57,837 bases of DNA from a virus (lineage: Duplodnaviria > Caudoviricetes). The stretch spans positions 1-57,837 of the IMG/VR virus record IMGVR_UViG_3300022745_000038; one strand, given 5' to 3'. How positions within the stretch are numbered: the first letter of the stretch is position 1; every line of letters begins with the position of its first letter. A program made the position numbers and the translations under genes. Shown here in pieces: positions 3,615-40,105 of the stretch. The notes beneath the pieces are model-generated. The model worked only from the letters and a program-made list of their open reading frames with translations, did not search any database and was not told the DNA's origin.

Positions 3615-6600
3615 CTACTGACGCATCGCCGCGCGTTGCAATTCCACAGTCCGGGCAATCTGGGCCCGTTGCTGAGACAGCCGGTCGATGACCTCGCGCT
3701 TCTCGCTCGGATCCATGGCTCGGTACTGAGCGAGGCGCAGTGCCTTGTTGATCTCGCCGATCTTCTTCTCCGCCTGCGTGTAGGCCTTGTTGAGAACGAT
3801 CTTGTCCTCATTCTCGGCCGCGAGACGGGTGGCCTTCTCCAGTTCTCCCAGTTCGCGCGCCTGCTTGATGTCGGCCATCACTTCGTGGACTGCTTTCGCC
3901 TGCTTGTAGAAGTCCTCGACATAGCGTGAACGGTTGGACGGGACTTCCTTCACGAAGTCACCGATCACAAACGTCTCATCCCACCGGCGCGTGGCGTGCG
4001 TTCTCCCGCGGAGGGGATCCGCCGCCATGGTGTCCACCCCCATCGCGATGTGCGAGCCAAGCCACCCGAAGTAGGCTCGGATCAAGTGGTCAACCTGCAC
4101 GGGAGAGATCCCGGTCGTGTCGCCAGCAGCGCCCAGCGTCTCGGCGATCCACGAGGTGTTGTAACTCTTTCGCTCGCTCTTCGAGAACCGTTCCATGCCC
4201 TTGGTTTCGATCTGCCGCCCGGTGAACGAGTCCTTGTTGGCGTACAGGTCGAGCGCCGGCTTGAACAGTTGCGGCACCGGGTTCATGGCGAAGGTGTCCT
4301 TGACCATGGACGCCATACGCTCACCCAACCGCTTCCCGGTCATCTCGTCGGAGATGACAAACTCCCAGGAGCGCTCCGCGATCGTACCAAGGGCACCAAT
4401 CTCGAATGGCTTGGGAATCCGGAACGCAGTGTCGCCGATCTTGAACCACCAATAGGCGTCCCGGTCCCAGTCCTCCCGGGCCTTCCAGTCGTCGTCGTCT
4501 GCGTAGGCGAGCAGTAGTCCGATCGACGCCAGCGCCACTGCGGCGGACACCGCGAACAGCCGGGTCGGGTCTTCCTTGCCGGCTCGCCCGAGTTTGTAGA
4601 GGCCCTGCGCGCGAGCGTTCAGGAACGGGACCACCTGAGACAGGAAACGCATGGCCACGAACGATCCCTGGAGTTGGAAGTCCAGGAAGTCGCGCGCCTG
4701 GTAGGCAGCCTCGAGCGGGGGCACACCGCGGGCGATCAGTTGCTTGTAGAGGGCCGCCCGGTTGATGTTCTCCATCCGGTCGCCGAAGTCCTGGTACGAG
4801 TCCCAGACCTTGCCGAAGGCGGCTTTGATCTTCTCCGGGGTGCTCAGGATGGTGTTCGCATCCACGCCCTGCTCGATCAGCCGCTTGGCGTGCTCGGCGT
4901 GGTCATCGTTGAACTGGCCGAAGCGCATCATTGCTCCGCCAAACAGCATCTGGGCGTACTCGGTCGAGTCCTTGCGCGTGCCCTGCCAGCCCTCCACCAG
5001 GTTCTTCGCCACGTTGTAGGACATGTCGTTCTGGCCGATCGCCGCCAGCGAATCCCGGATCAGGTTGCGGATCTTGAACGATGGGGAGATGGTCGTGCCG
5101 ATAGTCAGGGTGCGTTTGGCCTTGGACATCCAGTCCATCGCCCAGCCGCGCAGCGGGCCAGCCTCGAGGGCGGTGATGGCATCCAGCACGAACGGATCGC
5201 CCACCACCATCCAGTGCTCCTTGCCCTGGTCCATGAAGTAGGTCGCGCTTCCCTTGCCAGACGTGCGTTTGGCGATCTGGCGAGCCGTGTCGGCGTCAGC
5301 GGTGATCGCCACGCCCTGCCGCTCCGCCTCGGTCAGCGAAGCCGCAGCGGCTTGATTCGCCATGCTGGCGGAGATCAGGTGTGACCAGTTGCGCAGCGTG
5401 TTTTCCATCAGGTCGCCAAGGTTCTCCTCGCCACCCTTCAGTTTCTGGAACGCGCGCTGCCGCACCAAACCCTTGACCATCCCCGGGCCGCTGATCTCGT
5501 TGCCCTCCATCTCGCGATAGAAGGGGACGTAGAACTCCGATTCCCAGACGGCTCGACCGACCGGGTCGATCAGGCCGGTCTTTTCGGCGATGTCGAGCAC
5601 CGACTTGTTGTAGTCCTGCAACGTCTGTAGCGCCCGCGCGTAGGCCTGCGCACGCGAGGATCCGTCCGGCATGTTGCCCCGGTTCGCGCCTTGCAACGCC
5701 GCGATCTCGGCCGGCGTGAACAGGTGCTCCCTGCCCTCGATCATCAGTTTGGCCGACCGATTGCCGGCGACCCACGCGAGGAACCGGTCGTGCTCGCCAT
5801 TGAGCGCCTGCATGGCGCCCAGGAAGCCCTTGCCGTCGAGATCCCCGTAGATGTGTCCATCGGCATGCATCACCGGCTTGCCGTGCAGCAGGAGGCCTTC
5901 CAGAACCCCGTCCGCGCTTTTCGACATCCGCGCCAGGACGTAGGCCTTGTGGCTGAGTTTCTCCAGCGGGCGGAACTGGTCGAACACGCCCTGCACAAGG
6001 CGCGTCTTCCAGTTGTCCATCATCCCTGACACCTTCTCGCGCAGGGTCTTCTTCGGGGCGTAGGTGTCGATCTTGCCGGTGGCCGATTCAAGGGCGGCAT
6101 TGCCCTTGGCCCAGTCCGGCGTGCGCGAGACGGAGGCCATCACTTCCGGTCGTTGGCGTTCCGGTTGAGGTTGGCCGCGAACTCTCTCGCCACCTTCAGG
6201 GACCACGCCCTGTGGTTCCTGGCGATTCGAGGAGGCTGAGGTGCCGCGGTAGACGGCTTCGGAGATTCGACCTTGGGCGTATTCACTTTCGAGTGCCTCG
6301 CGCAATGATTGTCCGACGTTTTCATCAACGGCCGGGACGGAGGATCTGGCCACCACTGCTGCCTTCCCCTTGCCCCTGCCGTTGTCCACAACCACAATTG
6401 TCACGCGATCGTTGCCGCGATACCTATCGGCCAATTGGTCTACGACCTTTCTGGCTCCGACGTGGGTCTTCGCGTGCTCGTTCATCGGCACGGTCCGCCC
6501 CATACGCATTGCGCGCGGCAAAGCGCCATGCACCAGGGCCTCGACCGGGTCCCGGTACGTGTAGAGGATCGTCACGTCACGGCCGGACTTCAGGGCTGCC

Positions 6601-9600
6601 TCTATCTTGGACACGCTGCTTGGCAGCGCGTTCATGTTCGTGTCGTAGATAATCTCCGCCCGGTCGGCCGCGCCGGCCAATATCCTCAGGCCAGTCGACT
6701 TTCCGGCCCCGGTTCCTCCGGCGGTGAAAAGAACGACAGGGTCGCGGTTGGCTGGCGTGGGGGCCGCCAACATGTCGGCATAGCGCCGCTTGACGAAAGC
6801 AGAAGCTGGTTCATGAACCGCGGCCGACAGCGTGCGGTCCTCGCGGTACTCCGGGGACAACTCGCGGGCCAGGTCGGTATTGAGCACCCGACCGCCCATC
6901 GCATCGGGCAGTGCGTTGTACTCAGCAACGGCCGCTTCGTAGTCAGAGTCGATCTTCGCCTGCAGGCGATCTTCGATCTGCCTGTTGGTCAATTTCGGAG
7001 CGACGGAAGCGACCGCCTCATCGCCAGCGGCCCGCTCGCTGACATCGACGCCACCAAGCATTTCCGCGATCTTGGATCGTTCCTTGGGCGTCGACTTCCT
7101 GGACATCGGGAACGACGCGCCATCTTCAGACCTGGTGACCGCTCCCACCGGATCAGAAAGGAACATCCGCACCGCGGCCAGCGCTTTCTGCGTGTCCGAT
7201 ACCGGAACGGCAACATTCAGGACGAAGCGTCCCCTGCCAGTAGCGGCGCTCCCTTGGTCCGAAGGGCCGCCCGCATTTCCGCTCTTGACTCCGCGTCCAG
7301 CGGCTCCTGCAAACCCGACATTTCCAGCCAGTTCGCTTCGGTAACTGGAAGACGGAGCCTTTCCAGTTCGGCCACTATCGGATCCCTCCCAGCTTGGGGG
7401 GTCAATACGCCCAGCGCGCTGGACGATTTCGTTCCGCGCTTCATCAGTGGTCACCTCGCCAGCGTCGACTCGACGCCAGATGTTGTCGATCGCCTGAACA
7501 TTCGACTTCTTGGCCTTGAACGTGGGTTTGAACAGCCCGCGCACGGCCTCCCAGGTAATAGACTGCATTTCCCGAGGAAAGATCCCTCGAACAGCCGCTG
7601 CCCTACGGTATGCCTCGGCATAGATCCCATAGGTCCCTTGCGCACCGGTTATCGAGGAACTCGCAACTCCACCGCTGCCGAAGTTGTGGGTCACCTCCGC
7701 AGAACTCCCGGACATGCCACGGAGCAGTCCAGCGGCGACGGCATGGGTGTCGATCGTCACCGAACCACCTTCGTCGTTCGGCTCAGTGATGTTGTTGAAG
7801 AACGACCTGACCTTGTGCTGATCTCCCAAAAGGGCGCTGATGTTTTCGCGGCTGCCATCCGTCAATGCGGAGATGGCCTTGCCGATCTCTGAAAACGACC
7901 CCCACGCAAGTTTGCTGTTGCTCCCCTTCCCCGTCTTCATCCACCCTATGAATGCCCCAGTCGGAGCGCTCATCCGGTAACTGCGCGGGTTGTGGGCCTG
8001 GTCGTACACCCGAATCCAGGCGGCTTTCTGCACCAACGTCTTCAACTGCGAAAGACGTTTCCCGGCCACCTGGCCGCGCAGACTCTTGGGCAGGATCTTT
8101 CCGGCGATCATGTCCATTGCCGGATCCCAACGATGCTGCTGCTGGTCGTGCCAAACGTCGAGCACCCGCTCGGCGGCCGTCACGTTCATGTACCAGTCCT
8201 TCTGCGGGGACATCGCAGCGATCACTGCGGCGGACTGGTCTCTAGTCACCCCGTACTTCGCAGCCCATGCGTCAGCCAATTTGCGAGCGCCGTCGTACCA
8301 CTGCTTGGAATTCGCCCGGGTAGCCGCCGGCACCTGATCGTGCAACCAGAGAAGGTTGTCCGTGATGCGCTGTACGATCTGCTCGGCGCGCTCGTCCGGG
8401 GTCCCGGCGATCCCGCCCATGCCCGGATACTCGGACATGATGTCGATATTCTTGGCGAACGCCGCCTCTCCGGACCGGCGCATTGCGTCCAGGTCGATCT
8501 GCAGGCTTTCGGCCAGAGGGTCTTCCGTGGCCTTCTTCGCGGTCGGCCGTCTTGCGCTGACGGTTGAGGCGACAGCCACCACATCGCCATCAGCGCCGCC
8601 CGCATATCGGTCTGACAAAATCTTTGTGTCCTCGGCGGAGAACACAACGTAGTTGCTCTCTTTGGGCTGAAGCGCATCAGCGTACTGGATTCCAAGCACG
8701 CCACGCGCCAACAGTTCCATGCTTGCGTCTCTTGCAGACCCTAGTTTCTGCGCCATCCCCCTGTATGCCGCTCCACCAGTCCCAGACTCTGGCAACCCAA
8801 AGCCAGACCAGGCTGCCTTGACAACGTCAGGCTGATCATTGAATCCCCTATCCCACCTAAGCATGTTCGTAGTTTCAGGAATATCTGCCGTGTACAAACC
8901 TCCGGCGTACTCCACCTTCATTTTCTTGAGGAGGGCGATTGCCGAATCAATTTCGGCATCACTGGCATCGTCCATCCATCCAGAATCTCTCTCCTTTGGA
9001 TCGCGCATCGCATCAAAGGTGTCACGAGCATCGACCAGCCCGTTGTCTACGGCATATCGCAAAGCCTCCCCGGGGACCTTGCCGAATTTCTCGACCGCCG
9101 TCTCGTAAAGTTCCTCAATTGGGACCAAGCCAAGCTTTGTTACCTCTTCCGACAGTTGCCTTCTATGCCATTCCGCGATTTCCGGCTTGCTCGTGAAATA
9201 CAAACCCCACCCATAGTCGTTATCGCCACTCCCTTCCCCAATTTTGGCAGTGTCGAATTTGGATATCCCTCGACGGCCGGAACCGTGGTAGGCAATCATG
9301 GCGGCCACCGACCCGTCGGCACCATGGAAATTATCGACGGCCGATTCGTTCGAGATTTCCCGAAGGAACGTCCGCACCTCGGCGTCGGTCGCGCCGTTGC
9401 TCTTGAACCATCCGCGCAACCAGTCCATGAACCGGCCAAGCATCGTGCGCGGCGTGCGCAGCGCGGTGGCGTTCACCCCGTACCGGTCTGCCAACCCTGA
9501 GAAGTCGCCCGTGGTGTCGGCGGCGATCAACTCCATCAAGGCCTCTTCCATCGACAGCCGACCGACCGCGATGCCACGGTCAGCCGCCACCGCCTCGGAA

Positions 9601-12600
9601 AGTGCCTGCACAGTCGCATTCGCGCGAAGCCCCTGCGCCCGGCGCATTGCCTCGCCACCGGTCGCCCGGTTCAATGCGTCGAACCCTCGGTGCCCGCCCT
9701 CGTGAGCCGCCACCCAGAGCGCACGCGCCCGGGATGGGATGGCCTCAGCAACAATGTAGACCCGGCCCGTGCCCTTGACGTAGGCGCCCTCAAGCACGTC
9801 TCCGCGCTGCAGCTTGAGCGCATCGCGAACATCGTCAGGCAGGTCAGCGGCCGTGGCCACCACTTCGACGTTCTTGCGTGGGCCGATCCATGCTCGGACT
9901 TGGGCGACCGTGGGGTTCTCGCTCCGCCGCGAGTCCGCCACAGTGGCGGACTGCTCCGACTCCGGCTGCGCCGCGGCGGGGGGCACCGCGCGATCGGTGG
10001 CGGCGCGCTGGGGGGCTCGGGGAGTCGTCCGCTCGCCGCCGGCCCACTTGGTCACCCGCTGGGTCGTATCGCCGTTGTCGAACCAGTCCTGCAGTTGCTC
10101 CGGCGTCATGCCGACCACACCACCGTGGCGGGCCGCGCCCTTCTCGTACTGCGCGCGGTACAGGCGCAGCGCCTCCTCGGCGTTCTGGGCCCCAGCCACG
10201 ATCTTGTGCTCGTCGAATCGACCGCCCTCAGTGTTCTGGTCGATGACGAAGAACTTCCCGCGCCACGACAGGGGCGTCCCCGCCTTGACGAAGATGTCGA
10301 TGTGGTCGCCGTCCTTGCCGCGCGGCACCCCGGTGATGTAGCCGTAGTGGACTCCGCGCATCTTCACGCGCCAGCGCTTGCCGTTCGGGTCGACTCCTGT
10401 GCGTTCCGATTCGTTCGGGTTCTCCACCGAGATGTTGAACCCAGCAAGGGAAAACTTTCCCTTTTTATAGTTGCCAGCCCGCGTCATTGGCTCGGTAGGC
10501 TGGGGCAGGTCGTTCTTCTTCGAGGTGGCCGCCTCGTGCGCAGCGCGATCGACCCGCGCGCCGCGCGCCGGCACGATGTCCTCCGGCATCTCGTTCGGCG
10601 CCGAAGGAATGCGCTCATCCTGCGACAGGGTGGCACGGGCGTCGGCCGCACGCTTCAGACGTTCCACCTCGAGCGAGGTGGCCTTGTTGGCAGCAATCCC
10701 TTCCCGGCGCAGTTCGGCCTCGAACCGGCGCACCGGATCAGCCACCCCCTCTTCAGACATCACGCGGGACAGGATCTGGTCGCGGCGGGCCGCAGCCTCA
10801 TGCCGGCGCGCTCCTTCCACGCGGGCGTCCACGTCTGCCGTGGTCGCAGTTCTGGCGGATTCGGCGGCAGTACGCGCAGCCGCCTCAGCCTCGGCCATGG
10901 CTACGCGATCGGAAGGCTCCGCGAGCGCTTGGGCCTTTGTCGCGTCCGATCGCTCTGCGGCCCTCTGGGCGGCTCCTGCGGCGTCTTCCGCGGCGGCCTC
11001 CTGGAGGGGGCGCTGGTCCTCGACCCGGTTGGCGCGGTTCGGAAGTTCGCCACCGTAGGTCGACACCTCCCCTTCGACCGTGCGCCCGGTCGGCCGCTCG
11101 CCCGTCTCGGCAGGAAGTCCGCCACTGTGGCGGACTGGCGCGACCGCCGTGCCCGGCCCAGCAGGGGCCTCCGGGGTGTTCTGCCCCATCACGAAGTCCG
11201 GCCGCTCGTTCCATGCCGTCAGCAGACGCTCGACCCCGTCAATCGCCTGCGTGCGCGTCACCTCGTCCAGGCGCGGGTTGCGCGCGATGGCAAGAGCCTG
11301 CATCAGTTCGTTGGTCGACTGCGGTCCGAACCGCTCGTCCTCGCGCATGCCGCGCAGGATGTCCCGATCGATCGCCGCATCGGCGAACTTCACCCGACCC
11401 TCGAGCGTGTCGTAGAACGGGGCCTCCGCCCCGCTCACCGCGTTGCTGGCAGCCTGGATGGCATCATCCACAGTGCCTGCGTTGGCTATGTCCGCCAACA
11501 CCTTGCGGGTCTTGTCCTCTTCGATCGCGCCCGCGCGCCTCGCAGGGGTCAGGACTGCGCCGGGCCCGGCAATGATGCCCTCTCGCGCCGAGTTGAGAAG
11601 GACGTCTTCGAACAGCCCCTGCTCCGGGCGAACCTTCTGCACGCCGACATTGGTGGCGAACTGCTCTGCACCACCCTGCAGGCCCTCGGATCCGACAGCC
11701 ACCACCGTGCGCGCGCCACGGCCGGCGATCCCAGTGACGCCGGCCGCCGAACCTTCCAGACCGAAGCGCCCGGTGATTGCGCCCATGCCGGCAGCCAATC
11801 CGATCGACGCCCACTCCTCAGCCGTGCGCGGCAGTCTCTGCCCCAGCGCCTTCTTGGCATCCGCCTCTGACATCGTCTGGCGCATCTCCTGGTACACAGG
11901 AGAGTTCGCCTGCAGGTCAGAGTCCTTCAGTTCCTGGATCTTGTCGTAGATGTTGCCGCGCACCTCGCCTGCGGCCATCCCGGCCCCAACGCCCTCGAGC
12001 ACGTGCCGCGCAGCGGCCTCGCCAACGCCGGCCCCCTTGAGAGCCAGCCCAAGGGCCTTGAACGGTCCAAAGTTGCCAGCGAAGTCAGCGACCAATGACA
12101 GCGGGTCCACCGTGGCAACATGCTTGGCCCAGATGGCGACCTTGTCCACCTCGCCGTCCGCACGCTCGAGTTGGTTCTGCAGGCGACGGTTCTGGACCTT
12201 CTGCCATTCCGACTGCTTCTCCTGCCCGCTCTTGATGAACTCCTCGAGGGCGTTGGAGATGAAGTTCCCCGGAGAAACCAGATCGGGGATGGTCTTGACC
12301 AGACCTACCGCAGCATTCGCGGTGTTGATGACCGTATCGTTGACCGCAGCCAGCGTCGATCGCTTCGGAGCGCCACCCTTCGCCTTGGGCGACAACGGGC
12401 TCGCGTCGATGTCGAACTCTTCCTCCGAAGGAGCAGTCTGCTGACCGCGCGCTTCTGGGAGTTCTGCGCCGGAAACCATGTCGAAGGCCTGCGCCAACTT
12501 CTGGCCGTACTTCGGGTCCTCAGCGTAGCCGCCCTGAACCATGCCCTGCACGAAACGGCTGATGTCGCCACCAGCCCCGACCGCCCCTCGATACCGCGGG

Positions 12601-12929
12601 TTGCTGCCGATCAGGTTGGCGTAGTCCTCGGCAAAGGCCTCCGGGGTGTCATAGGCCCGGTACTTGTCCACCGTGCCCAGCATGTTGTCGCGAGCCGGAG
12701 CAGAAGGGCCACCCCATCCTGTTGCCTTGATGTTCCCCAGGTTGTTGGTGCCCGGGATGACCGACCTCCCCCAACCAGTCTCAAGCCCCCACTGGGCGAG
12801 AATGGCCCGCGGGTCGACGCCCAACTTCGCGCCGGCCTCGGCTGCCGCTTGGCCATACGTGTCAACGAAGTCGGCTACGCCGCCGCCGGTCCGGGGGGCA
12901 AGTTCCAGCCCAAGGGTGTCGGCCATCAA
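3615..12929 (-). CDS. Giant 3104-aa polyvalent internal virion/ejection protein: GH73 muramidase, inorganic-pyrophosphatase-like, HExxH peptidase, ART-like, glycosylase-like, zeta-toxin-like P-loop, LPD38-like C-terminus
   Basis: Motifs AQWGLETGWG/NNLGNIK/YAEDPKY; HYGYI..DGDHIDIF..DEHK; AAHEGGH; YHGS..GWGLYFT..YVVF; SPQKDW..KVRSFFNNI..VTIDTH; GGTGAGKST; RIPKPFEIG. Confidence 0.9.
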   Translation of the reverse strand: MMADTLGLELAPRTGGGVADFVDTYGQAAAEAGAKLGVDPRAILAQWGLETGWGRSVIPGTNNLGNIKATGWGGPSAPARDNMLGTVDKYRAYDTPEAFAEDYANLIGSNPRYRGAVGAGGDISRFVQGMVQGGYAEDPKYGQKLAQAFDMVSGAELPEARGQQTAPSEEEFDIDASPLSPKAKGGAPKRSTLAAVNDTVINTANAAVGLVKTIPDLVSPGNFISNALEEFIKSGQEKQSEWQKVQNRRLQNQLERADGEVDKVAIWAKHVATVDPLSLVADFAGNFGPFKALGLALKGAGVGEAAARHVLEGVGAGMAAGEVRGNIYDKIQELKDSDLQANSPVYQEMRQTMSEADAKKALGQRLPRTAEEWASIGLAAGMGAITGRFGLEGSAAGVTGIAGRGARTVVAVGSEGLQGGAEQFATNVGVQKVRPEQGLFEDVLLNSAREGIIAGPGAVLTPARRAGAIEEDKTRKVLADIANAGTVDDAIQAASNAVSGAEAPFYDTLEGRVKFADAAIDRDILRGMREDERFGPQSTNELMQALAIARNPRLDEVTRTQAIDGVERLLTAWNERPDFVMGQNTPEAPAGPGTAVAPVRHSGGLPAETGERPTGRTVEGEVSTYGGELPNRANRVEDQRPLQEAAAEDAAGAAQRAAERSDATKAQALAEPSDRVAMAEAEAAARTAAESARTATTADVDARVEGARRHEAAARRDQILSRVMSEEGVADPVRRFEAELRREGIAANKATSLEVERLKRAADARATLSQDERIPSAPNEMPEDIVPARGARVDRAAHEAATSKKNDLPQPTEPMTRAGNYKKGKFSLAGFNISVENPNESERTGVDPNGKRWRVKMRGVHYGYITGVPRGKDGDHIDIFVKAGTPLSWRGKFFVIDQNTEGGRFDEHKIVAGAQNAEEALRLYRAQYEKGAARHGGVVGMTPEQLQDWFDNGDTTQRVTKWAGGERTTPRAPQRAATDRAVPPAAAQPESEQSATVADSRRSENPTVAQVRAWIGPRKNVEVVATAADLPDDVRDALKLQRGDVLEGAYVKGTGRVYIVAEAIPSRARALWVAAHEGGHRGFDALNRATGGEAMRRAQGLRANATVQALSEAVAADRGIAVGRLSMEEALMELIAADTTGDFSGLADRYGVNATALRTPRTMLGRFMDWLRGWFKSNGATDAEVRTFLREISNESAVDNFHGADGSVAAMIAYHGSGRRGISKFDTAKIGEGSGDNDYGWGLYFTSKPEIAEWHRRQLSEEVTKLGLVPIEELYETAVEKFGKVPGEALRYAVDNGLVDARDTFDAMRDPKERDSGWMDDASDAEIDSAIALLKKMKVEYAGGLYTADIPETTNMLRWDRGFNDQPDVVKAAWSGFGLPESGTGGAAYRGMAQKLGSARDASMELLARGVLGIQYADALQPKESNYVVFSAEDTKILSDRYAGGADGDVVAVASTVSARRPTAKKATEDPLAESLQIDLDAMRRSGEAAFAKNIDIMSEYPGMGGIAGTPDERAEQIVQRITDNLLWLHDQVPAATRANSKQWYDGARKLADAWAAKYGVTRDQSAAVIAAMSPQKDWYMNVTAAERVLDVWHDQQQHRWDPAMDMIAGKILPKSLRGQVAGKRLSQLKTLVQKAAWIRVYDQAHNPRSYRMSAPTGAFIGWMKTGKGSNSKLAWGSFSEIGKAISALTDGSRENISALLGDQHKVRSFFNNITEPNDEGGSVTIDTHAVAAGLLRGMSGSSAEVTHNFGSGGVASSSITGAQGTYGIYAEAYRRAAAVRGIFPREMQSITWEAVRGLFKPTFKAKKSNVQAIDNIWRRVDAGEVTTDEARNEIVQRAGRIDPPSWEGSDSGRTGKAPSSSYRSELAGNVGFAGAAGRGVKSGNAGGPSDQGSAATGRGRFVLNVAVPVSDTQKALAAVRMFLSDPVGAVTRSEDGASFPMSRKSTPKERSKIAEMLGGVDVSERAAGDEAVASVAPKLTNRQIEDRLQAKIDSDYEAAVAEYNALPDAMGGRVLNTDLARELSPEYREDRTLSAAVHEPASAFVKRRYADMLAAPTPANRDPVVLFTAGGTGAGKSTGLRILAGAADRAEIIYDTNMNALPSSVSKIEAALKSGRDVTILYTYRDPVEALVHGALPRAMRMGRTVPMNEHAKTHVGARKVVDQLADRYRGNDRVTIVVVDNGRGKGKAAVVARSSVPAVDENVGQSLREALESEYAQGRISEAVYRGTSASSNRQEPQGVVPEGGERVRGQPQPERQRPEVMASVSRTPDWAKGNAALESATGKIDTYAPKKTLREKVSGMMDNWKTRLVQGVFDQFRPLEKLSHKAYVLARMSKSADGVLEGLLLHGKPVMHADGHIYGDLDGKGFLGAMQALNGEHDRFLAWVAGNRSAKLMIEGREHLFTPAEIAALQGANRGNMPDGSSRAQAYARALQTLQDYNKSVLDIAEKTGLIDPVGRAVWESEFYVPFYREMEGNEISGPGMVKGLVRQRAFQKLKGGEENLGDLMENTLRNWSHLISASMANQAAAASLTEAERQGVAITADADTARQIAKRTSGKGSATYFMDQGKEHWMVVGDPFVLDAITALEAGPLRGWAMDWMSKAKRTLTIGTTISPSFKIRNLIRDSLAAIGQNDMSYNVAKNLVEGWQGTRKDSTEYAQMLFGGAMMRFGQFNDDHAEHAKRLIEQGVDANTILSTPEKIKAAFGKVWDSYQDFGDRMENINRAALYKQLIARGVPPLEAAYQARDFLDFQLQGSFVAMRFLSQVVPFLNARAQGLYKLGRAGKEDPTRLFAVSAAVALASIGLLLAYADDDDWKAREDWDRDAYWWFKIGDTAFRIPKPFEIGALGTIAERSWEFVISDEMTGKRLGERMASMVKDTFAMNPVPQLFKPALDLYANKDSFTGRQIETKGMERFSKSERKSYNTSWIAETLGAAGDTTGISPVQVDHLIRAYFGWLGSHIAMGVDTMAADPLRGRTHATRRWDETFVIGDFVKEVPSNRSRYVEDFYKQAKAVHEVMADIKQARELGELEKATRLAAENEDKIVLNKAYTQAEKKIGEINKALRLAQYRAMDPSEKREVIDRLSQQRAQIARTVELQRAAMRQ
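9934..9950. repeat. 17-bp palindrome copy 2 (extends to 21 bp), encodes SATVAD in the giant protein
   Basis: agTCCGCCACAGTGGCGGAct. Confidence 0.95.
11118..11134. repeat. 17-bp palindrome copy 3 (21 bp), encodes VRHSGG in the giant protein
   Basis: agTCCGCCACTGTGGCGGAct. Confidence 0.95.
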
Positions 12930-32935: not shown

Positions 32936-35194
32936 CTACGTGATTGCGACGGTCTTGGCACCACGTGCCTCGGCCTCGCGGTCGTTTCGGATCTGAAGCG
33001 CCTGCTGCGCCAGCTTGACCTTGTCGCTGCTCAAGGCCTTGCGCTCCGCATGGTCACGGTCGCGCTGCTTGTCCTCTGCATCCACGCCGCGCATCAGCAT
33101 GTCATGCTCGGCCTGCTGTCGACGCTCCTCGGCATCGGCCTGCAACTCTGCCGCAGTGCGCTGGTTCAGGCCCTGCTCCTTCAGTTGCGCGACCTGCATG
33201 GCAGTCTGCGCCTTCACCATCGTGTCTGGGGTCGGGGTTGGCTTCTGCTGCTGCATCTGCTCGCGCCGCTTCTTGATCTCATCCGGCTCGCGAAGTACGT
33301 CGTCCGGGGAAATGGAGTCGGCGGTCAGCGCCTTGCGAACCATCTTCTCGTCGTCAAACATGTAGGAGATCGCCGGGTTGGTCAGGGCAGCGAGCCACTT
33401 GACCATCGCCTGGTTCGCCAAATCGCGTTGCATGAGCGTCGTCGAACCGCGGGCGTCCACCTCGTAGTCACCCTTGATCTCTTCCTTCGGGTTGTACTGC
33501 ATGTTCCAGTCGTAGTACCGCCGGAGGTGCGGCCGGGTGATGTCGTCGTCGTAGCGCTTCACCAGGCGCCGCAGGACCACGGTCGCAGAGTTCATCAGCA
33601 TTTGCATGCTGCCAACCTGCGCGGGCGCATCGCCGCGCTCGCCGGCCATGATCATCGGGAAGGCGATCTCTTCGTCCGCGAACTTGAGCGCCAGTTCGAT
33701 GATCTTCAGGAAGTGTTCCGTGTGCGGATCAATCGTGTACAGGCCGAAGGCCTTGGTCACGTCCGCCATCTCCGCTTCGCCGGTCAGGCCCCAGAGTTTC
33801 GTGCCGCCGCCGACCGTCCAATTCCCATCCTTCGGCTCGATGTGGTCCGACATCACGATCTGGGCGCCGGCTGACATCCCGGCGTTGTCCATGATCTGCC
33901 GAGTGGCGGCCGTCACCATGCGCTGCGCCGACTGCCGCAGAAGGTACGGAATGCCGTAGCCGAAGATCCGATTCTGCGCCGGCTCCCATACGAGCACGTC
34001 GTAGGGGAGGTCGCCGCTCTCGAGCGGGTTCAGGTACGCCTTGACCGGGCGATCGTTGATGATCACCAGGCACCCGCTGATCGACATCAGTGGGTCGACC
34101 TCGCCGACATCGCACCCGCACATCTCGAGCACTCGCGGGTCGATGTCCCCATGCCGCTCCCAAACCTCGTACTGCCGGTCCTGAGGAGGAACGTAGCCGT
34201 TCTCGTCGCGTCGCTCTCCCTGCTGCGAGGTGAGGTAACTACGCTGTGGGCCCTCGACCAAGCATTCTCGGATCGCGTCGGCGTTGTAGCCTGGGGCTCG
34301 CGCCAGTTGTCGCAGCTTCCGCTTCGAGATGAAGCGCCGCTCCCAGATCGCCTCGGCGTTGCGGATGTCATTGCCGCACGCCATGTCTGGGAAGAAGTCC
34401 TCCGGGTTCACGCGCTCAGTGACCGGGACCTTCGATTCATTGAACTGCAGGACGTGGACAACCCCGCTTGGCGTTTCGTGCCTCTTCCAGGATTTCTCCC
34501 GCCTCGCGCGGACAACGGGGCCCTTGACGATACCGGTCCCGTACAGCACGGCGTCATGAATCATGGACCGCGAGGTGCCGTTGAACGAGCACTCCGTGAG
34601 CTGGTCCTCGATCTCCCGCTCCATGGCCTTGGAGCGCTCTGTCGCCAGACGGGTCAACTCGTTGGCGTAGTCCCGCGCCTGCATTTGGCGCTGCCCGCTC
34701 TCCTCGCCATCATCGGGGACCATGATCGGCTCGCCCTGATGCACCAGCGGGGTGTCGTCGTTGGCCAGTTCCGCCAACTCTGGGACTGGCGTGGGCTTGA
34801 TGCCCCAGTTCTTCTCGTCATGCGGGAAGAGCATGTCGGCCAGACGCGCCTCGGCGCTGTTGGCCTTGGGCCGGGTGATGTTCGGAGATACCCGGCTCTT
34901 GGTGATCGTCTCGTCGTCACGATTTGGCCGGCCGCCTCGCTCGCCGCGGGTGGCTATGGCCTGCATCATGTCACCGTCGAGGTTCGCCTCGTCCTTGCCG
35001 TGGTAGTACTGGATGTCAAGTGACCACTGCAATTCCACACCAGACGCGGCGCGGTCGCGGACGTACTCGTCGCGCTCCTTGACGTAGGCGTTGACGAGCG
35101 ATCGCATCAACTCATCGTCGTATGCGCTCTCGTCATCTTCCCTCTCGGGAACGGCCTGTAGTTGGGTGGCAGCCATCGCGTGAGGCTGCCACAT
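32936..35194 (-). CDS. Portal protein (podovirus type)
   Basis: NITRPK..ARLADMLFP..NW, DAVLYGTGIVKGP, FFPD, FGYGIP, RRYYDWNMQ; downstream of TerL. Confidence 0.9.
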   Translation of the reverse strand: MWQPHAMAATQLQAVPEREDDESAYDDELMRSLVNAYVKERDEYVRDRAASGVELQWSLDIQYYHGKDEANLDGDMMQAIATRGERGGRPNRDDETITKSRVSPNITRPKANSAEARLADMLFPHDEKNWGIKPTPVPELAELANDDTPLVHQGEPIMVPDDGEESGQRQMQARDYANELTRLATERSKAMEREIEDQLTECSFNGTSRSMIHDAVLYGTGIVKGPVVRARREKSWKRHETPSGVVHVLQFNESKVPVTERVNPEDFFPDMACGNDIRNAEAIWERRFISKRKLRQLARAPGYNADAIRECLVEGPQRSYLTSQQGERRDENGYVPPQDRQYEVWERHGDIDPRVLEMCGCDVGEVDPLMSISGCLVIINDRPVKAYLNPLESGDLPYDVLVWEPAQNRIFGYGIPYLLRQSAQRMVTAATRQIMDNAGMSAGAQIVMSDHIEPKDGNWTVGGGTKLWGLTGEAEMADVTKAFGLYTIDPHTEHFLKIIELALKFADEEIAFPMIMAGERGDAPAQVGSMQMLMNSATVVLRRLVKRYDDDITRPHLRRYYDWNMQYNPKEEIKGDYEVDARGSTTLMQRDLANQAMVKWLAALTNPAISYMFDDEKMVRKALTADSISPDDVLREPDEIKKRREQMQQQKPTPTPDTMVKAQTAMQVAQLKEQGLNQRTAAELQADAEERRQQAEHDMLMRGVDAEDKQRDRDHAERKALSSDKVKLAQQALQIRNDREAEARGAKTVAIT

Positions 35195-36395: not shown

Positions 36396-38840
36396 TCAGT
36401 ACCCCACCAACGGGTCAAGAATGGTATTCGCCGCCACACGCTTCGGGCGGCCGGAAGGCATCAGCGCAGCACGCTTCAGCCCAGTCATGACGAGATACCG
36501 CAAGGCGTCCATCAGGTGGTCGTTGTCCTTCACGATCCGCCCCTTCTCGTCCCTCCGATAGACCCGGTACTCCATGAAAAAGTTCTGGCAGGACGCAAAG
36601 ACTTTGATCCGCCCGGTCGAGATCCTCCCCCAGACGTTGTAGATCCCAGCCTCCACCGCGTTCTCGGCGTCGGTCAGGTGCAGCCCCTCCGCCCGCAGCA
36701 TGCGCTTGACCAGCGAGCCGTCAACCTGCGACCCGCCGCCAGCAGGGTCGATCACGCCCGGGATCCATGGCCCTCTGGCTTTCACCGCGCTGGCAATGAC
36801 CGGTGGCTCAGCGTTTGAGCGATACAGCTCCGAGTAGATGTACAGGGTGTCGTTCGCGAGATCCACCGCCCCCCACAGACCAGCCGTCCGCTTCCACCCA
36901 ACGTCGAGCGCATACACCCGCGGCCAATGGTCAGGCACCTCGAAGTCCTTGACCTTGATATCGCTCTCGGCGATCGGGTAGATGACCCCCGATCCCAGCG
37001 TCGGGGTGCCGTTCTCGCGCGCCTCGCGCAGATGCGGCGGAGTCTCCGATCGCATCCTCTCCTTCGTGGCCTCGTCCAAGTGGGGGACGTGGTTCCAGCC
37101 GGCCTGGACCATCACACGACCATCGCGAACGGTCACCCCGTAGTCCTCGACGATCTTGGCGCCCTTGCCCATGTAGTGCTCCACGATGGCCGTCCGGCCT
37201 TTGAGTGGGGTGAAAGTCTCGATCAGCAGGCCGCCGGTCGTCATCAGGCGCAGCACCGCCTCGTTGCGAACATCCTCCGGCCCTTCCTCGTCCAGCCCCA
37301 CGCCGTCCTTCGCCGTCCCCTGCCACGCGCGCCGGCCCTGGTCGTAGGATTTCATCCCGAGACGAGACATGCCGCCGCTCTTGTGGCGGATCAAGGCGTA
37401 GTCGATCGCGCGGCCCGTGTTAGGGCGCACCGTGGGCTGGCCGATGATCAGGTCGCCGGGGATCATCCCGGTGCCCCATTGACCTTGGTCGCCGAACATC
37501 GCGACCTGCAAGATGTCCCGGACCGTCTCGGAGGTGTCACCCCCCATCCACCAATCCACCGGCTTGTCGAAGCGGTGACCGCTCCACCAGTCGGGGTAGA
37601 GGCCGGTCAGGTGGAGCGTCGTCTCGTAGGCGTTGACAACGGTGTTGTGGTGGACGACCCCGGCGCAGAAGTAATTCCGGTGGGTCTCGACCTCGAAGTC
37701 GAACACTTCATGCGAGCCAATAGAGTAGACTGCGACCACCCGCACGCCCAAAGGAAGCCGCAATGGACATTGACCAAGTTCGATCTCTAGTGGCTCGCAT
37801 GCCACACCGGCAAGCCGCCGAGATTCTTGGCGTGAGCATCCAGCGTCTGGCGACGTTCTGCTCAAAACACGGGATCCTTCGCCGGCCTCAGTCGAAGAAA
37901 ACCCCGAGTTTCGACCCCGCGCTCCTGAAGAAGATGATCGAAGTGGATCTGCTAACCCAAGAGCAGGCCGCCGCCCAACTTGGCGTGAATCGGACAACGG
38001 TAGAGCAATGGTGCTGTCGGCTGAAATTACAGACCCAAAGGACTGGCCCTCGAGGAGGTGAACTCCACCCATCATGGACCGGAGGCGTGACCATTCGTCG
38101 GGGGTATCGATATCTCCACAGGCCCAATCACCCCAACGCGATAAAGCAGGGCTACGTCGCCGAGCACCGACTGGTGATGGAAGAAAAATTGGGCAGACTG
38201 CTGCTGCCCCGCGAGGTTGTCCATCACCGTAACGGGGATCCTTTGGACAATCGCCCGGAGAACCTTGAGTTGTTTCGTTCCAATGGCGAGCATCTACGGC
38301 ACGAACTGACTGGCCGTATCCCCAACTGGACAGAATCGGGTCGTCAGGCAATCCTGATCGGCGTCGAGAAAGCTGTACGTAATCGCCGAGATGCAGCCAT
38401 CCGTCGACGGTCAGGATCCGGTGACCCAGCGCAGCCTCAAACCACCGACCATTCGACAGATGCACCCGAAGGCACGGCTCCGGCTTCGGCTTGATGAACG
38501 GGGCAGAGGCGCGCGCCACAACGCGCTTCTCGCCATCCCACGCCATTACATCGAATGGGCGACCAGCGTCAACCAACCTGGCCAGAGGAATGTCGCCTTC
38601 AGGGGCCTCGATTGAGTTGACAATTGTGCAACATTTTCCAATCCTGTTGCCCGCAATGAAGGCTCGGGTCTTGAAGTCCCGCCCGGCGCTGAAGAACAGC
38701 ATGTGCCGCGGATAGAGGTGCCGCGCATGCGCCCCATCCTCCGGGAACCAGACGAACAGCTTCTGCCGCGAGCGGCGATACTCAAGCTCCGCCAGAAGCT
38801 CGATCAGCGCTTCTTGTTCGTCCCTTGTGGTTGCTCCCAT
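36396..38840 (-). CDS. terL: Terminase large subunit with an intein
   Basis: AGNRIGK[intein]T Walker A, LDEE Walker B, TFTP, ALDVG, DHLMDALRY. Confidence 0.95.
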   Translation of the reverse strand: MGATTRDEQEALIELLAELEYRRSRQKLFVWFPEDGAHARHLYPRHMLFFSAGRDFKTRAFIAGNRIGKCCTIVNSIEAPEGDIPLARLVDAGRPFDVMAWDGEKRVVARASAPFIKPKPEPCLRVHLSNGRWFEAALGHRILTVDGWLHLGDYVQLSRRRSGLPDDPILSSWGYGQSVRAVDARHWNETTQGSPGDCPKDPRYGDGQPRGAAAVCPIFLPSPVGARRRSPALSRWGDWACGDIDTPDEWSRLRSMMGGVHLLEGQSFGSVISADSTIALPLSDSRQVGRRPALGLADPLRSSSSGARGRNSGFSSTEAGEGSRVLSRTSPDAGCSRQESRRLAGVACEPLEIELGQCPLRLPLGVRVVAVYSIGSHEVFDFEVETHRNYFCAGVVHHNTVVNAYETTLHLTGLYPDWWSGHRFDKPVDWWMGGDTSETVRDILQVAMFGDQGQWGTGMIPGDLIIGQPTVRPNTGRAIDYALIRHKSGGMSRLGMKSYDQGRRAWQGTAKDGVGLDEEGPEDVRNEAVLRLMTTGGLLIETFTPLKGRTAIVEHYMGKGAKIVEDYGVTVRDGRVMVQAGWNHVPHLDEATKERMRSETPPHLREARENGTPTLGSGVIYPIAESDIKVKDFEVPDHWPRVYALDVGWKRTAGLWGAVDLANDTLYIYSELYRSNAEPPVIASAVKARGPWIPGVIDPAGGGSQVDGSLVKRMLRAEGLHLTDAENAVEAGIYNVWGRISTGRIKVFASCQNFFMEYRVYRRDEKGRIVKDNDHLMDALRYLVMTGLKRAALMPSGRPKRVAANTILDPLVGY
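37644..38633 (-). mobile_element. Intein (330 aa) in the TerL Walker A motif
   Basis: Starts with Cys after GK; block B GHRILT; ends VFDFEVETHRNYFCAGVVHHN followed by Thr. Confidence 0.92.
37763..38494 (+). CDS. HTH + HNH endonuclease encoded antisense inside the TerL intein
   Basis: AAGGA RBS; two HTH-like segments; YVAEHRLVME..VVHHRNGDPLDNRPENL. Confidence 0.88.
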   Translation: MDIDQVRSLVARMPHRQAAEILGVSIQRLATFCSKHGILRRPQSKKTPSFDPALLKKMIEVDLLTQEQAAAQLGVNRTTVEQWCCRLKLQTQRTGPRGGELHPSWTGGVTIRRGYRYLHRPNHPNAIKQGYVAEHRLVMEEKLGRLLLPREVVHHRNGDPLDNRPENLELFRSNGEHLRHELTGRIPNWTESGRQAILIGVEKAVRNRRDAAIRRRSGSGDPAQPQTTDHSTDAPEGTAPASA

Positions 38841-39040
38841 GGCCTCGTCTTCAGCATGTGATCGAGCAGCAGCGCCTCTTGCGCGCACTGCGTCCACACT
38901 GATCGTGCCACACCGCACCGGTCCGGTTCGCCAGGGCGGACAGCCGTCGAACGGATGATCCCGTCAGCAGCGAGCGCGACGGTCATGTAGCAGACGATGC
39001 CAGCGCGCAGCCACTCCTCGTCTTGGATGTCGTCGATCAT
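38804..39040 (-). CDS. Small hypothetical protein
   Basis: ATGA overlap with the endolysin stop. Confidence 0.5.
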   Translation of the reverse strand: MIDDIQDEEWLRAGIVCYMTVALAADGIIRSTAVRPGEPDRCGVARSVWTQCAQEALLLDHMLKTRPWEQPQGTNKKR

Positions 39041-39681
39041 CCCAGTGCTTTCAGGATCCGCACGGCGTTGTCTGAGAATTCCTTCAGCCCGATCGACCCG
39101 CCGTTCCACACCTTCCGGAACCCCTGAAGATCCCACTGGTCCGCGAGGATCGGGAGGCGGCCAGCGCCGGCCCACGACCAGAACCACGCCGCCACCATGG
39201 CCCCGGGGCGCGGCCGAGACACCTTGTCCGGATCCTCGACAAGGTCCAAGCGGAGCGCGAGCCCGGCACGAACGTATGCATCACGTCCGGTCAACTGCGG
39301 GAACCCACGGCCGCGGAACTTCCAGCCGTCGCCGCTCGCCTCGTCACCGTTGCCCATGCGGCCGGCGTACACGAGGTTGGCCAACTTCTCCGGGGCCATG
39401 GCGTAGTCGAGCGGATTCGCCCGGTGGCCGTCAGGCTGGCCCAGCGGGTGGAACCGGGTAGGCCACACCTCGGGCAGTCTCGCGGCCCGGTAGTACAGGC
39501 TCTCGGACAGCCTAGACAGCGCGCCCGTCTCAACTTGCCCCGTGGCGAGGAAGCACGCGATGCGCCGCGGCGTCGTGATCTGCGCCCACCCCATCGCGGC
39601 GTCAAGTGGGGAAGCCCAGTCGTCGGCCGCCTCCTGGCTGCACCGGACCAACTCGACCAGCAGGCTCGGGGTCAACATCAT
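39037..39681 (-). CDS. Endolysin, glycoside hydrolase family 19
   Basis: FLA..VETG..ESL.Y, ANLVYAGRMGN..GDGWKFRGRGFPQLTGR..Y, AAWFW, NGG. Confidence 0.92.
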   Translation of the reverse strand: MMLTPSLLVELVRCSQEAADDWASPLDAAMGWAQITTPRRIACFLATGQVETGALSRLSESLYYRAARLPEVWPTRFHPLGQPDGHRANPLDYAMAPEKLANLVYAGRMGNGDEASGDGWKFRGRGFPQLTGRDAYVRAGLALRLDLVEDPDKVSRPRPGAMVAAWFWSWAGAGRLPILADQWDLQGFRKVWNGGSIGLKEFSDNAVRILKALG

Positions 39682-40105
39682 GTGCGTGGTCCGGCGTTGA
39701 ACTGGCCGGATTATGCACGCCGTCCGCCACTGTGGCGGACTGTTCGCTAGGCATAGGGGGGACCATGGCCTCAGCCATGCGATAGGCCATATCCCTGACG
39801 TCCGCGATGATGTCGTCAGCCCAATCCGGAGTAGCCCGAACGGACATCCGCGCCCATGGAAGCAGGTCGCCCGCGTACCGCATCGCCCACTCCGCAACTC
39901 GCAGCGCTCGATCGGATCCAGCCTTCTCCTGCCACGCGGATAATTTTCGCCTCTCCTCGGCCAAGTCTTTCTCGACCCGGTCCAAGACCTCCTTGCGAAC
40001 AAGATCAACTGGCCCACGACCAGGAATTACGAGGCAAGACGTGCCACATCCTTCGTTGCAAAGCCCCCCCACCATCACGCACAACTTGATCACCCCCGGC
40101 TCCAT
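39602..40105 (-). CDS. Hypothetical protein
   Basis: GGAG before MEPG; 3' end overlaps the endolysin. Confidence 0.5.
   Translation of the reverse strand: MEPGVIKLCVMVGGLCNEGCGTSCLVIPGRGPVDLVRKEVLDRVEKDLAEERRKLSAWQEKAGSDRALRVAEWAMRYAGDLLPWARMSVRATPDWADDIIADVRDMAYRMAEAMVPPMPSEQSATVADGVHNPASSTPDHAHDVDPEPAGRVGPVQPGGGRRLGFPT
39723..39739. repeat. 17-bp palindrome copy 10 (SATVAD), about 40 nt upstream of the endolysin start
   Basis: gTCCGCCACTGTGGCGGAc. Confidence 0.95.

Follow-up and report, generated by a model that had tools for sequence, protein, structure and literature searches.

An HNH gene antisense to the terL intein

In the viral contig IMGVR_UViG_3300022745_000038, the gene for the terminase large subunit (TerL) is interrupted by an intein, and a gene for an HNH endonuclease lies wholly inside the intein on the opposite strand. 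The window analysed here is the whole stretch of 57,837 bases, a single contig with a guanine-plus-cytosine (GC) content of 62.9%. The gene for the terL precursor occupies positions 36396..38840 of the minus strand and encodes 814 amino acids from the ATG at 38840; it was assigned from the list of open reading frames (ORFs) and from matches to Terminase_6N, Terminase_6C and PHROG terminase families. The open frame reaches an upstream GTG at 38918 (36396..38918, 840 amino acids), and the ATG at 38840 is the likely true start because the relatives P0121 and P0407 begin at that methionine.

The N-extein (38634..38840, minus strand) comprises 69 residues and ends in Walker A (...AGNRIGK), as judged by alignment with the intein-less relatives P0121 and P0405. 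It is followed by the intein (37644..38633, minus strand), 330 residues running from Cys1 to a terminal His-Asn, and by the C-extein (36396..37643, minus strand), 415 residues and the stop codon, which begins TVVNAYE and is identical to intein-less P0121 at 389 of 415 positions. The junctions read IAGNRIGK|CCTIVNS and GVVHHN|TVVNAYE, both within the Walker A motif (GK|C...HN|T), with a nucleophilic Cys at intein position 1 and a block G of the form ...VVHHN|T, in which Thr occupies the +1 position.

The splicing domain is split into two lobes. The Hint N-lobe (38349..38633, minus strand; intein residues 1-95) contains blocks A and B and was delimited from an AlphaFold2 model and Foldseek matches; the Hint C-lobe (37644..37745, minus strand; residues 297-330) contains blocks F and G and was recognised from its predicted local distance difference test score (pLDDT 96) and from the alignment. 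Between them lies a stop-free linker (37746..38348, minus strand; residues 96-296), the TerL-frame "shadow" of the HNH gene, in which Ser, Arg, Gly, Pro and Ala together account for 54% of residues, versus 36% in the C-extein. In the AlphaFold2 model, run on an alignment of 17 related inteins, pLDDT was 85-98 over residues 1-90 and 96 over residues 301-330; residues 96-292 scored 33-45, lacked secondary structure and were predicted to be disordered. Foldseek comparison of the model with the PDB gave 19 matches at E ≤ 1e-3, every one an intein splicing domain, with mini-inteins superimposing at a root-mean-square deviation of ~2 Å over 87 residues. Cys1, His71 of block B, Asp312 of block F and Asn330 were invariant across the 17 related inteins. 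The Pfam scan of the TerL ORF returned Terminase_6N, Terminase_6C and a weak match to the end of Intein_splicing (20.4 bits, below the cut-off of 35.8), and detected no nuclease domain in this frame.

The empty form of the insertion site is present in close relatives. P0121, found by BLASTP with the C-extein alone as query, is an intein-less TerL of 484 amino acids that is 94% identical in the C-extein; across the insertion site it reads ...AGNRIGKTVVNAYE..., which is exactly the predicted spliced product. In P0121 and in P0405 (also 484 amino acids, from the same 90% cluster), GK|T is uninterrupted (...AGNRIGKT[V/I]VNAYE...). Most (115 of 120) of the best C-extein relatives have the intein-less size of 465-502 amino acids, and the other 5 measure 754-834. 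Among these five long relatives, P0132 and P0133 have the same GK| site filled by an insert of the form Cys...HHN|T, and P0169 carries an insert a few residues upstream of that site. In P0183 and P0208 (TerL proteins with 54-55% identity in the C-extein), the GK|T site is filled by LAGLIDADG_3 inteins starting with Ala, and different intein types thus occupy it. By comparison with the intein-less enzymes, the 330-residue insert would be removed by protein splicing, restoring GNRIGK-T and leaving an enzyme of 484 residues.

An earlier, sequence-only reading of this DNA had placed a 330-residue intein at precisely this point of the Walker A motif and had described its centre as stop-free, rich in Ser, Arg and Gly and devoid of a recognisable domain. 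The exact junctions and the intein-less GK|T relatives agree with the first statement, and the composition, the low pLDDT and the absence of an in-frame nuclease from the Pfam scan bear out the second.

On the plus strand, the nested HNH gene (37763..38494) encodes 243 amino acids plus a stop codon, and a Shine-Dalgarno (SD)-like AAGGA (37751..37755, plus strand) stands 7 nucleotides before its ATG. The product starts with two three-helix helix-turn-helix (HTH) modules (37763..38020, plus strand; residues 1-47 and 52-86), identified by Pfam HTH families and by helices of the AlphaFold2 model (3-36 and 52-86), and continues with an HNH_3 catalytic core (38075..38308, plus strand; residues 105-182, of which the Pfam match covers 135-171). 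The match to HNH_3 (PF13392) scored 41.2 bits over a cut-off of 24.8 (E 1.2e-10); HTH_28 and HTH_23 also exceeded their Pfam cut-offs, and HTH_17 fell just below (26.9 bits, cut-off 27). PHROG families of HNH endonucleases were matched with E down to 4e-24. In total, 2766 homologues were detected at E ≤ 1e-3, the best of them 64-66% identical and of similar length.

Residues H154, H155, N163, N167, N174 and H177 were invariant in 46 HNH sequences. In the AlphaFold2 model, strands occupy residues 152-155 and 168-171 and are followed by a helix at 174-182, and the invariant residues presumably take the roles usual for a beta-beta-alpha-metal motif. The model as a whole (mean pLDDT 87.3; 166 of its 243 residues reach at least 90) consists of the two three-helix modules, the beta-beta-alpha core and a C-terminal helix; the last 27 residues (217-243) are weakly predicted (pLDDT 56-62). 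Among predicted viral structures (BFVD), the model had 77 matches at E ≤ 1e-3, and those with names were HNH, homing or intron-encoded endonucleases. Against the PDB, Foldseek returned only matches of the HTH type (bipartite HTH DNA-binding), none of them at E ≤ 1e-3, and a profile search of PDB sequences brought up nothing but HTH repeats; support for the HNH fold therefore comes from Pfam and BFVD.

The window, at 63% GC, contains many long spurious ORFs, which might suggest that the plus-strand ORF is a chance open frame and that the intein centre is a degenerate in-frame nuclease. This explanation has a negligible probability: it is refuted by the HNH_3 match above the cut-off, the 2766 homologues and the confident fold, and the TerL-frame centre has neither a nuclease-domain match nor predicted structure. 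The clean antisense frame of 243 residues with HTH-HTH-HNH order and an AAGGA, pointed out in the sequence-only reading, is confirmed by the same Pfam families, fold and homologues, and profile searches of both frames assign HNH_3 to the plus strand and no nuclease to the TerL frame.

Selection on the two reading frames

The two frames are offset such that codon position 1 of TerL lies opposite position 1 of HNH, TerL position 2 opposite HNH position 3 and TerL position 3 opposite HNH position 2; a silent change in one frame therefore always changes the other. When the HNH ORF was shuffled synonymously, the TerL frame acquired 6.8 stops on average and stayed free of them in only 2 of 5000 shuffles. 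With shuffled codon order, and likewise with recoding by TerL codon usage, none of 5000 was stop-free. The antisense layout is more than chance, and the TerL-frame reading of the centre is held free of stops by selection. The host frame would be kept open there purely by avoidance of stop codons.

Codon-position patterns separate the centre of the intein from its ends. The GC content of third positions in the TerL frame is 0.85-0.9 in the exteins versus 0.33-0.5 in the intein centre, where the position of high GC is TerL position 2. Among six related IMG/VR loci, third-position differences were ~0.5 in the exteins and ~0.2 in the Hint N-lobe; in the intein centre, TerL position 2 (HNH position 3) differed at 0.10-0.23, versus 0.02-0.06 at TerL position 3. 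The same flip of codon positions, in more saturated form, was seen among the window, L084 and L001, whose differences in the HNH frame were 0.43, 0.33 and 0.64 at positions 1, 2 and 3. In every group compared, HNH third positions changed roughly twofold more often.

The closest intein-bearing relative, P0407 (814 amino acids), was compared as a protein only. Identity to the window was 58/69 in the N-extein, 93/95 in the Hint N-lobe, 110/199 in the linker, 30/34 in the Hint C-lobe and 396/415 in the C-extein. Of the TerL-frame differences that lie opposite the HNH ORF, 50 of 89 are compatible with unchanged HNH residues; neutral single hits would be expected to give 36%. Towards its 3' end the HNH ORF runs into the coding sequence of the Hint N-lobe (38349..38491, both strands), and in this zone 50 of 51 TerL residues are identical to those of P0407, which indicates that the TerL frame dominates there. 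In the intein centre, selection thus acts on the HNH frame; at the Hint ends it acts on that of TerL. A search for the nested HNH of P0407 itself among P0002-P0120 yielded a best codon compatibility of 71% (P0003), so these proteins do not include it.

At 38333-38410, the C-terminal helix of the HNH protein (residues 191-216, pLDDT 79-95) lies opposite structured residues ~76-101 of the Hint N-lobe. In terms of the two models, these ~25 codons may be truly dual-coding.

Recurrence, origin and mobility

The layout was examined further in the 80 best IMG/VR loci from a search with the HNH protein. In 32 of the 80 loci, the HNH match was covered by an open antisense stretch of at least 500 amino acids, and 29 of the 80 lie in inteins or in clusters whose members do. 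With one further locus, L030, this gives 30 embedded loci, all with 0 stops in the relative frame seen in the window; among free-standing loci, 46 of 48 have at least one stop in that frame. Two candidates, L057 and L058, were open in a different frame and lacked Hint blocks, and were treated as chance. L030 (2631-4775) is a DNA methylase ORF that carries, antisense and in the relative frame of the window, an HNH of this family, with no Hint blocks seen; by analogy, it may be the antisense counterpart of the ShiLan-type insertion described below.

Junctions were inspected in 21 sources, the window and L084 included. The insertion site was GK|[ST] in the window, L084 and L001, the form x|[ST]GK[ST] was commoner in terminases, and in one case (L003) the insertion was in an SMC-like ATPase. 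In the 17 sources that were measured, the inteins span 281-330 amino acids and the HNH ORF is nested in 16. The exception is L024, where the first-ATG call starts 55 nucleotides outside the intein and is probably over-extended. The HNH start lies 101-176 nucleotides from the intein's C-terminal end in 14 of 17 (exceptions: L016, at 41 nucleotides, and L024). When viral contigs were scanned with the whole TerL, the one relative detected was L084, in which the layout is the same.

Two loci show variations on this architecture. In L023 (3620-4580), an AAA+ ATPase (VGIPG|C...HHN|TGKS) has six in-frame host stops opposite an intact HNH ORF of 220 amino acids, and a new ATG, with GAGG 8 nucleotides upstream of it, opens the C-terminal piece, which comprises 36 amino acids of Hint C-lobe and then the AAA+ domain. 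The sequence of this locus suggests a gene that is fractured and an intein that is split, with the same HNH antisense to them. L025 (1188-4829) and protein P0241 show a terminase with two inteins, one with an antisense HNH in the P-loop (GGNG|C...SAN|SGTT) and a LAGLIDADG_3 intein downstream.

The search was broadened with a profile built on the shadow peptide, here taken from 17 sources as the part of the host-frame translation that faces HNH residues 93-192, and run against 1.84 billion representative proteins. The profile matched 618 protein clusters at E ≤ 1e-3 (160 at E ≤ 1e-10) and thereby offers a simple way to find such inteins. In the best 150 of the 618, Hint lobes flanked the match on both sides in 128, only the N-lobe was seen in 12, only the C-lobe in 2 and neither in 8. 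Junctions of the 128 two-lobed matches were mostly (96) of the form x|[STC]GK[ST]; 11 were x|[STC]xK[ST], 11 were helicase-type ([STC]GxGK or similar), 7 were GK|[STC], 2 were otherwise P-loop-like and 1 was unclear, and a Walker A-type motif was interrupted in at least 125 of the 128. A Pfam scan of the top 48 of the 150 identified Terminase_6N (6), Terminase_3 (2), GpA_ATPase (1), AAA (4) and SNF2 (4), and further hosts belonged to Mg_chelatase, MoxR, DnaB_C, DNA_pol3_delta2 and, once, a DNA methylase. Judged by these matches, the window element is a member of a large, mostly unannotated family of P-loop inteins with a nested antisense HNH_3. The survey also returned eight giant proteins of 3174-4667 amino acids with a Hint-flanked shadow peptide (P0254, P0260, P0289, P0318, P0319, P0328, P0379 and P0390); the junctions of P0254 and P0289 are ordinary x|[ST]GKT, and those of the other six are helicase-type (e.g., GDQ|C...HN|TGIGKG).

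This range of hosts bears on the role of the nuclease. Its location inside terL would suit a protein that serves the phage rather than the intein, either as a terminase-associated packaging cofactor or as a weapon against competing phage genomes without homing, and HNH proteins adjoining terminase genes are described as a packaging component (PMC3592412, in the part of that article consulted). However, the same nested family is found in the inteins of AAA+, SNF2, DnaB-like, clamp-loader-like and Mg-chelatase proteins, the HTH-HTH-HNH_3 architecture of 243 residues matches named homing or intron-encoded endonucleases, and close intein-less relatives of this TerL do without the HNH. A role in the service of the phage is thus highly improbable.

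A quick maximum-likelihood tree was computed for 74 unique HNH ORFs, and all but one of the 29 embedded ORFs fell in one group of 29 rows (Shimodaira-Hasegawa-like approximate likelihood ratio test, SH-aLRT, 85), the remaining row of which is L023; L030 lies outside this clade on a long branch. The embedded label requires at least 3 changes on the tree, and none of 500 shuffles was as low. A single origin of the antisense embedding is likely on these grounds, and the neighbouring groups in the tree, with weak support, are free-standing genes.

In-frame HNH_3 inteins do exist, among SNF2-type proteins (P0393-P0400) and in the dCTP deaminase of cyanophage CL131 (PMC6293099, as far as that source was available), and the nuclease segment of such an intein might simply have been inverted, with no invasion by a free-standing gene. 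Ten proteins longer than 426 amino acids carry an in-frame relative of the HNH at E ≤ 1e-3, and six of the ten are SNF2 proteins with Intein_splicing. These relatives are remote (20-41% query coverage), the in-frame forms named above reaching 20-32% coverage and E from 8e-8 to 2.5e-4 compared with 9e-87 for short relatives of stand-alone size, which speaks for the capture of a free-standing gene rather than for an inverted in-frame domain. The nested gene also has its own start and SD site, its product begins with two HTH modules, and free-standing loci are the gene's neighbours in the tree. An origin by inversion is therefore unlikely. The sequence-only reading had proposed that a free-standing HNH gene invaded a mini-intein backwards. 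Its free-standing character stands, in view of the ATG, the SD-like site, the HTH modules and the tree neighbours. What does not stand is that the capture took place in this phage: the same frame and layout in every embedded relative examined, together with the clustering in the HNH tree, suggest that the composite element is old and entered this terL as a unit. Such a history would support the view of inteins as splicing first and acquiring the nuclease later, and L023 would link contiguous inteins, antisense-nuclease inteins and fractured genes in one family.

Several observations fit such movement. Identities of the Hint and HNH parts were correlated over 17 sources (Spearman 0.40, a value reached by 2 of 2000 permutations), which fits co-inheritance of both parts. 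In the 90% cluster of P0121, two alleles are empty (P0121 and P0405) and P0407 is filled, with the gene call for the window itself as a further member, and the GC content of the intein is 0.587 versus 0.643 in the exteins; both fit a presence/absence polymorphism of a horizontally acquired element. A scan of genome contigs with P0121 for the DNA of an empty allele found only relatives of at most 54% identity.

Taken together, the data are best explained by a composite selfish element, in which a class-1 intein in the Walker A loop of TerL carries an independent HNH_3 homing-endonuclease gene nested antisense within it; we put the probability of this reading at about 80%. The architecture and the selection on both strands are established, and splicing, expression of the nuclease and homing are inferred. 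In the 814-residue TerL precursor, the Hint lobes (~95 and ~34 residues) are joined by an unstructured tether of ~200 residues that is the antisense reading of the HNH gene; splicing would excise the 330-residue insert, restore GNRIGK-T and yield the 484-residue enzyme. The HNH protein would be translated off an antisense transcript, using an ATG and SD site of its own, and with its two DNA-binding HTH modules and beta-beta-alpha-metal nuclease it would cut intein-less terL near the GK/T codons in mixed infections. Repair from the occupied allele would then copy intein and nuclease together. As judged from the relatives, the antisense capture would be old, and the unit would since have spread among the P-loops of many NTPase (nucleoside triphosphatase) genes.

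A number of observations weigh against this reading. In the TxxH of block B the window reads A-L-G-H, Thr being replaced by Ala in this subclade (it is kept in 7 of 17 relatives). The embedded clade is backed by an SH-aLRT of only 85, and by a quick tree alone. The codon-position and mobility signal is strongest in another IMG/VR cluster (L011), not in this phage; in that cluster the pattern of recent transfer is clear, with Hint N-lobe third positions at ~0.2 versus ~0.5 in the exteins. Comparison of the window with P0407 does not clearly show less divergence in the intein than in the exteins. The search for sigma70-like promoters in 37000-39200 gave 0 (mean of shuffles, 0.5), and an SD-like motif 5-8 nucleotides upstream of the HNH start was seen in only 5 of 17 related loci.

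The last three of these points, with 12 of 17 loci lacking an SD-like site, would be expected if the HNH gene were a silent passenger, captured a single time, by now neither expressed nor active, and persisting by youth or hitch-hiking in an intein that is now vertically inherited. On the other hand, the HNH ORF is intact in 17 of 17 loci at pairwise divergence levels of 19-59%, third positions show the approximately twofold excess of changes in every group, the catalytic residues are invariant in 46 sequences, and empty and filled alleles coexist in one 90% cluster. We regard a silent passenger as quite unlikely.

A broader and doubtful proposal can be attached to the composite-element reading. 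It is conceivable that a mini-intein captured a free-standing HTH-HNH gene backwards, once and long ago, and that this gave rise to a very large, largely unannotated two-strand selfish family. The family would be specialised in DNA that encodes Walker A motifs and could thereby hop between unrelated NTPase genes, among them those of terminases, ATPases of the AAA+ type, the helicases SNF2 and DnaB, clamp loaders and Mg-chelatase. Being transcribed antisense, the nuclease would follow a schedule of its own, and the host mRNA might be dampened in the process; the sequence-only reading had likewise supposed that expression of the nuclease would be uncoupled from that of late TerL.

Genomic setting, annotation and comparison with known systems

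The long ORFs of the window are nearly all on the minus strand. The neighbours of terL include an endolysin gene (39037-40017, minus strand) and, in the same region, a gene for a portal or head-tail adaptor protein (32936-35194, minus strand). All neighbouring genes being on the minus strand, the HNH ORF is a lone plus-strand gene within a minus-strand late module. Two terminator-like hairpins were found in 37000-39200, on the minus strand, a number not above chance (1.3 in shuffles). A minus-strand ORF at 3615-12929 encodes a virion-type protein of 3104 amino acids that matches endolysin-like, DarB-like antirestriction and virion-protein families of PHROG and is, by these matches, probably an ejected internal virion protein. 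In the phage collection, the closest named relative of the TerL is that of EBPR podovirus 1 (47% identity, in the C-terminal half).

The public gene call for this terL (P0404, 36396-37745) is a fragment of 449 amino acids that starts at the Hint C-lobe, with the HNH called separately (P0001). Gene callers thus keep the HNH gene and truncate the terminase, so such inteins and their hosts are systematically mis-annotated in phage and metagenome data. If the composite-element reading is right, the two strands of the same DNA would encode two cooperating selfish functions, a splicing domain that renders the insertion harmless and a nuclease that provides mobility.

Small stand-alone HNH proteins of the HK97 gp74 type are encoded beside the terminase genes and are tied to packaging. 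In contrast to these, the HNH in the window is nested in an intein and carries two HTH modules, and its family also occurs in AAA+, SNF2, DnaB-like and other non-terminase hosts.

Mycobacteriophage TerL inteins occupy a comparable site. The Lys|Thr position of Walker A is termed the "classic P-loop" insertion by Kelley et al. 2016 (PMC5050341), and the insertion in the window is likewise between the invariant Lys and the nucleophilic Thr; a term search of that article found no mention of an antisense nuclease gene.

In-frame HNH inteins have been reported by Dalgaard 1997 (as cited in later work), and the dCTP deaminase intein of cyanophage CL131 combines HintN with HNH_3 (PMC6293099, in the part consulted). 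These, like the SNF2 inteins (P0393-P0400), share with the window element a nuclease of the same Pfam HNH_3 superfamily together with a Hint domain. However, their nuclease is a domain of the intein polypeptide, whereas here it is a separate gene on the opposite strand and only remotely related.

A same-strand parallel is ShiLan, in which an out-of-frame HNH is hidden in an insertion within a phage DNA methylase that lacks splicing domains (Arsenault et al. 2025, PMC11855218, in the sections consulted). In both cases an HNH is hidden in another frame of an insertion and the host frame is free of stops; unlike ShiLan, the gene described here is antisense and lies inside a complete intein. In fractured genes, split inteins have a GIY-YIG or Vsr-like nuclease gene between their halves, an arrangement put forward as a model for nuclease acquisition (Dassa et al. 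2009, PMC2677866, in the portion consulted). They resemble the window element in having a free-standing nuclease gene within the intein coding region, but the host gene is broken in two in the fractured forms and uninterrupted here, L023 being a putative fractured form with this HNH.

The closest parallels are antisense nuclease inteins. Full-text literature searches, which did not reach supplements or Gorbalenya 1998, found no antisense HNH in an intein. The preprint of Gosselin, Arsenault and Gogarten 2025 (bioRxiv 10.1101/2025.01.02.630785) surveys 784 actinophage inteins and, in the parts consulted, lists antisense LAGLIDADG ORFs in the inteins of Synechocystis DnaX, a Chloroflexus SpoVR-like protein and actinophage minor capsid proteins, the first two of which it credits to Gorbalenya 1998 and Gogarten 2002. 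HNH appears there only in frame, although the supplementary tables might list more. Its authors propose invasion of inteins by a free-standing nuclease, the same model as in the sequence-only reading. Several of their non-canonical inteins, like the one in the window, are in the terminase large subunit and have an in-frame centre without recognisable structure. The antisense-LAGLIDADG inteins likewise share with the window element a nuclease ORF on the opposite strand between the splicing blocks, an open host frame and apparent movement as a unit. They differ in that the nuclease here is an HNH_3 with two HTH modules, distinct from both antisense types described (LAGLIDADG and VSR-like), and in that the hosts are the P-loops of terminases and other NTPases, mostly of uncultured phages. 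The element in the window is the HNH version of a rare, already described antisense-nuclease intein arrangement.

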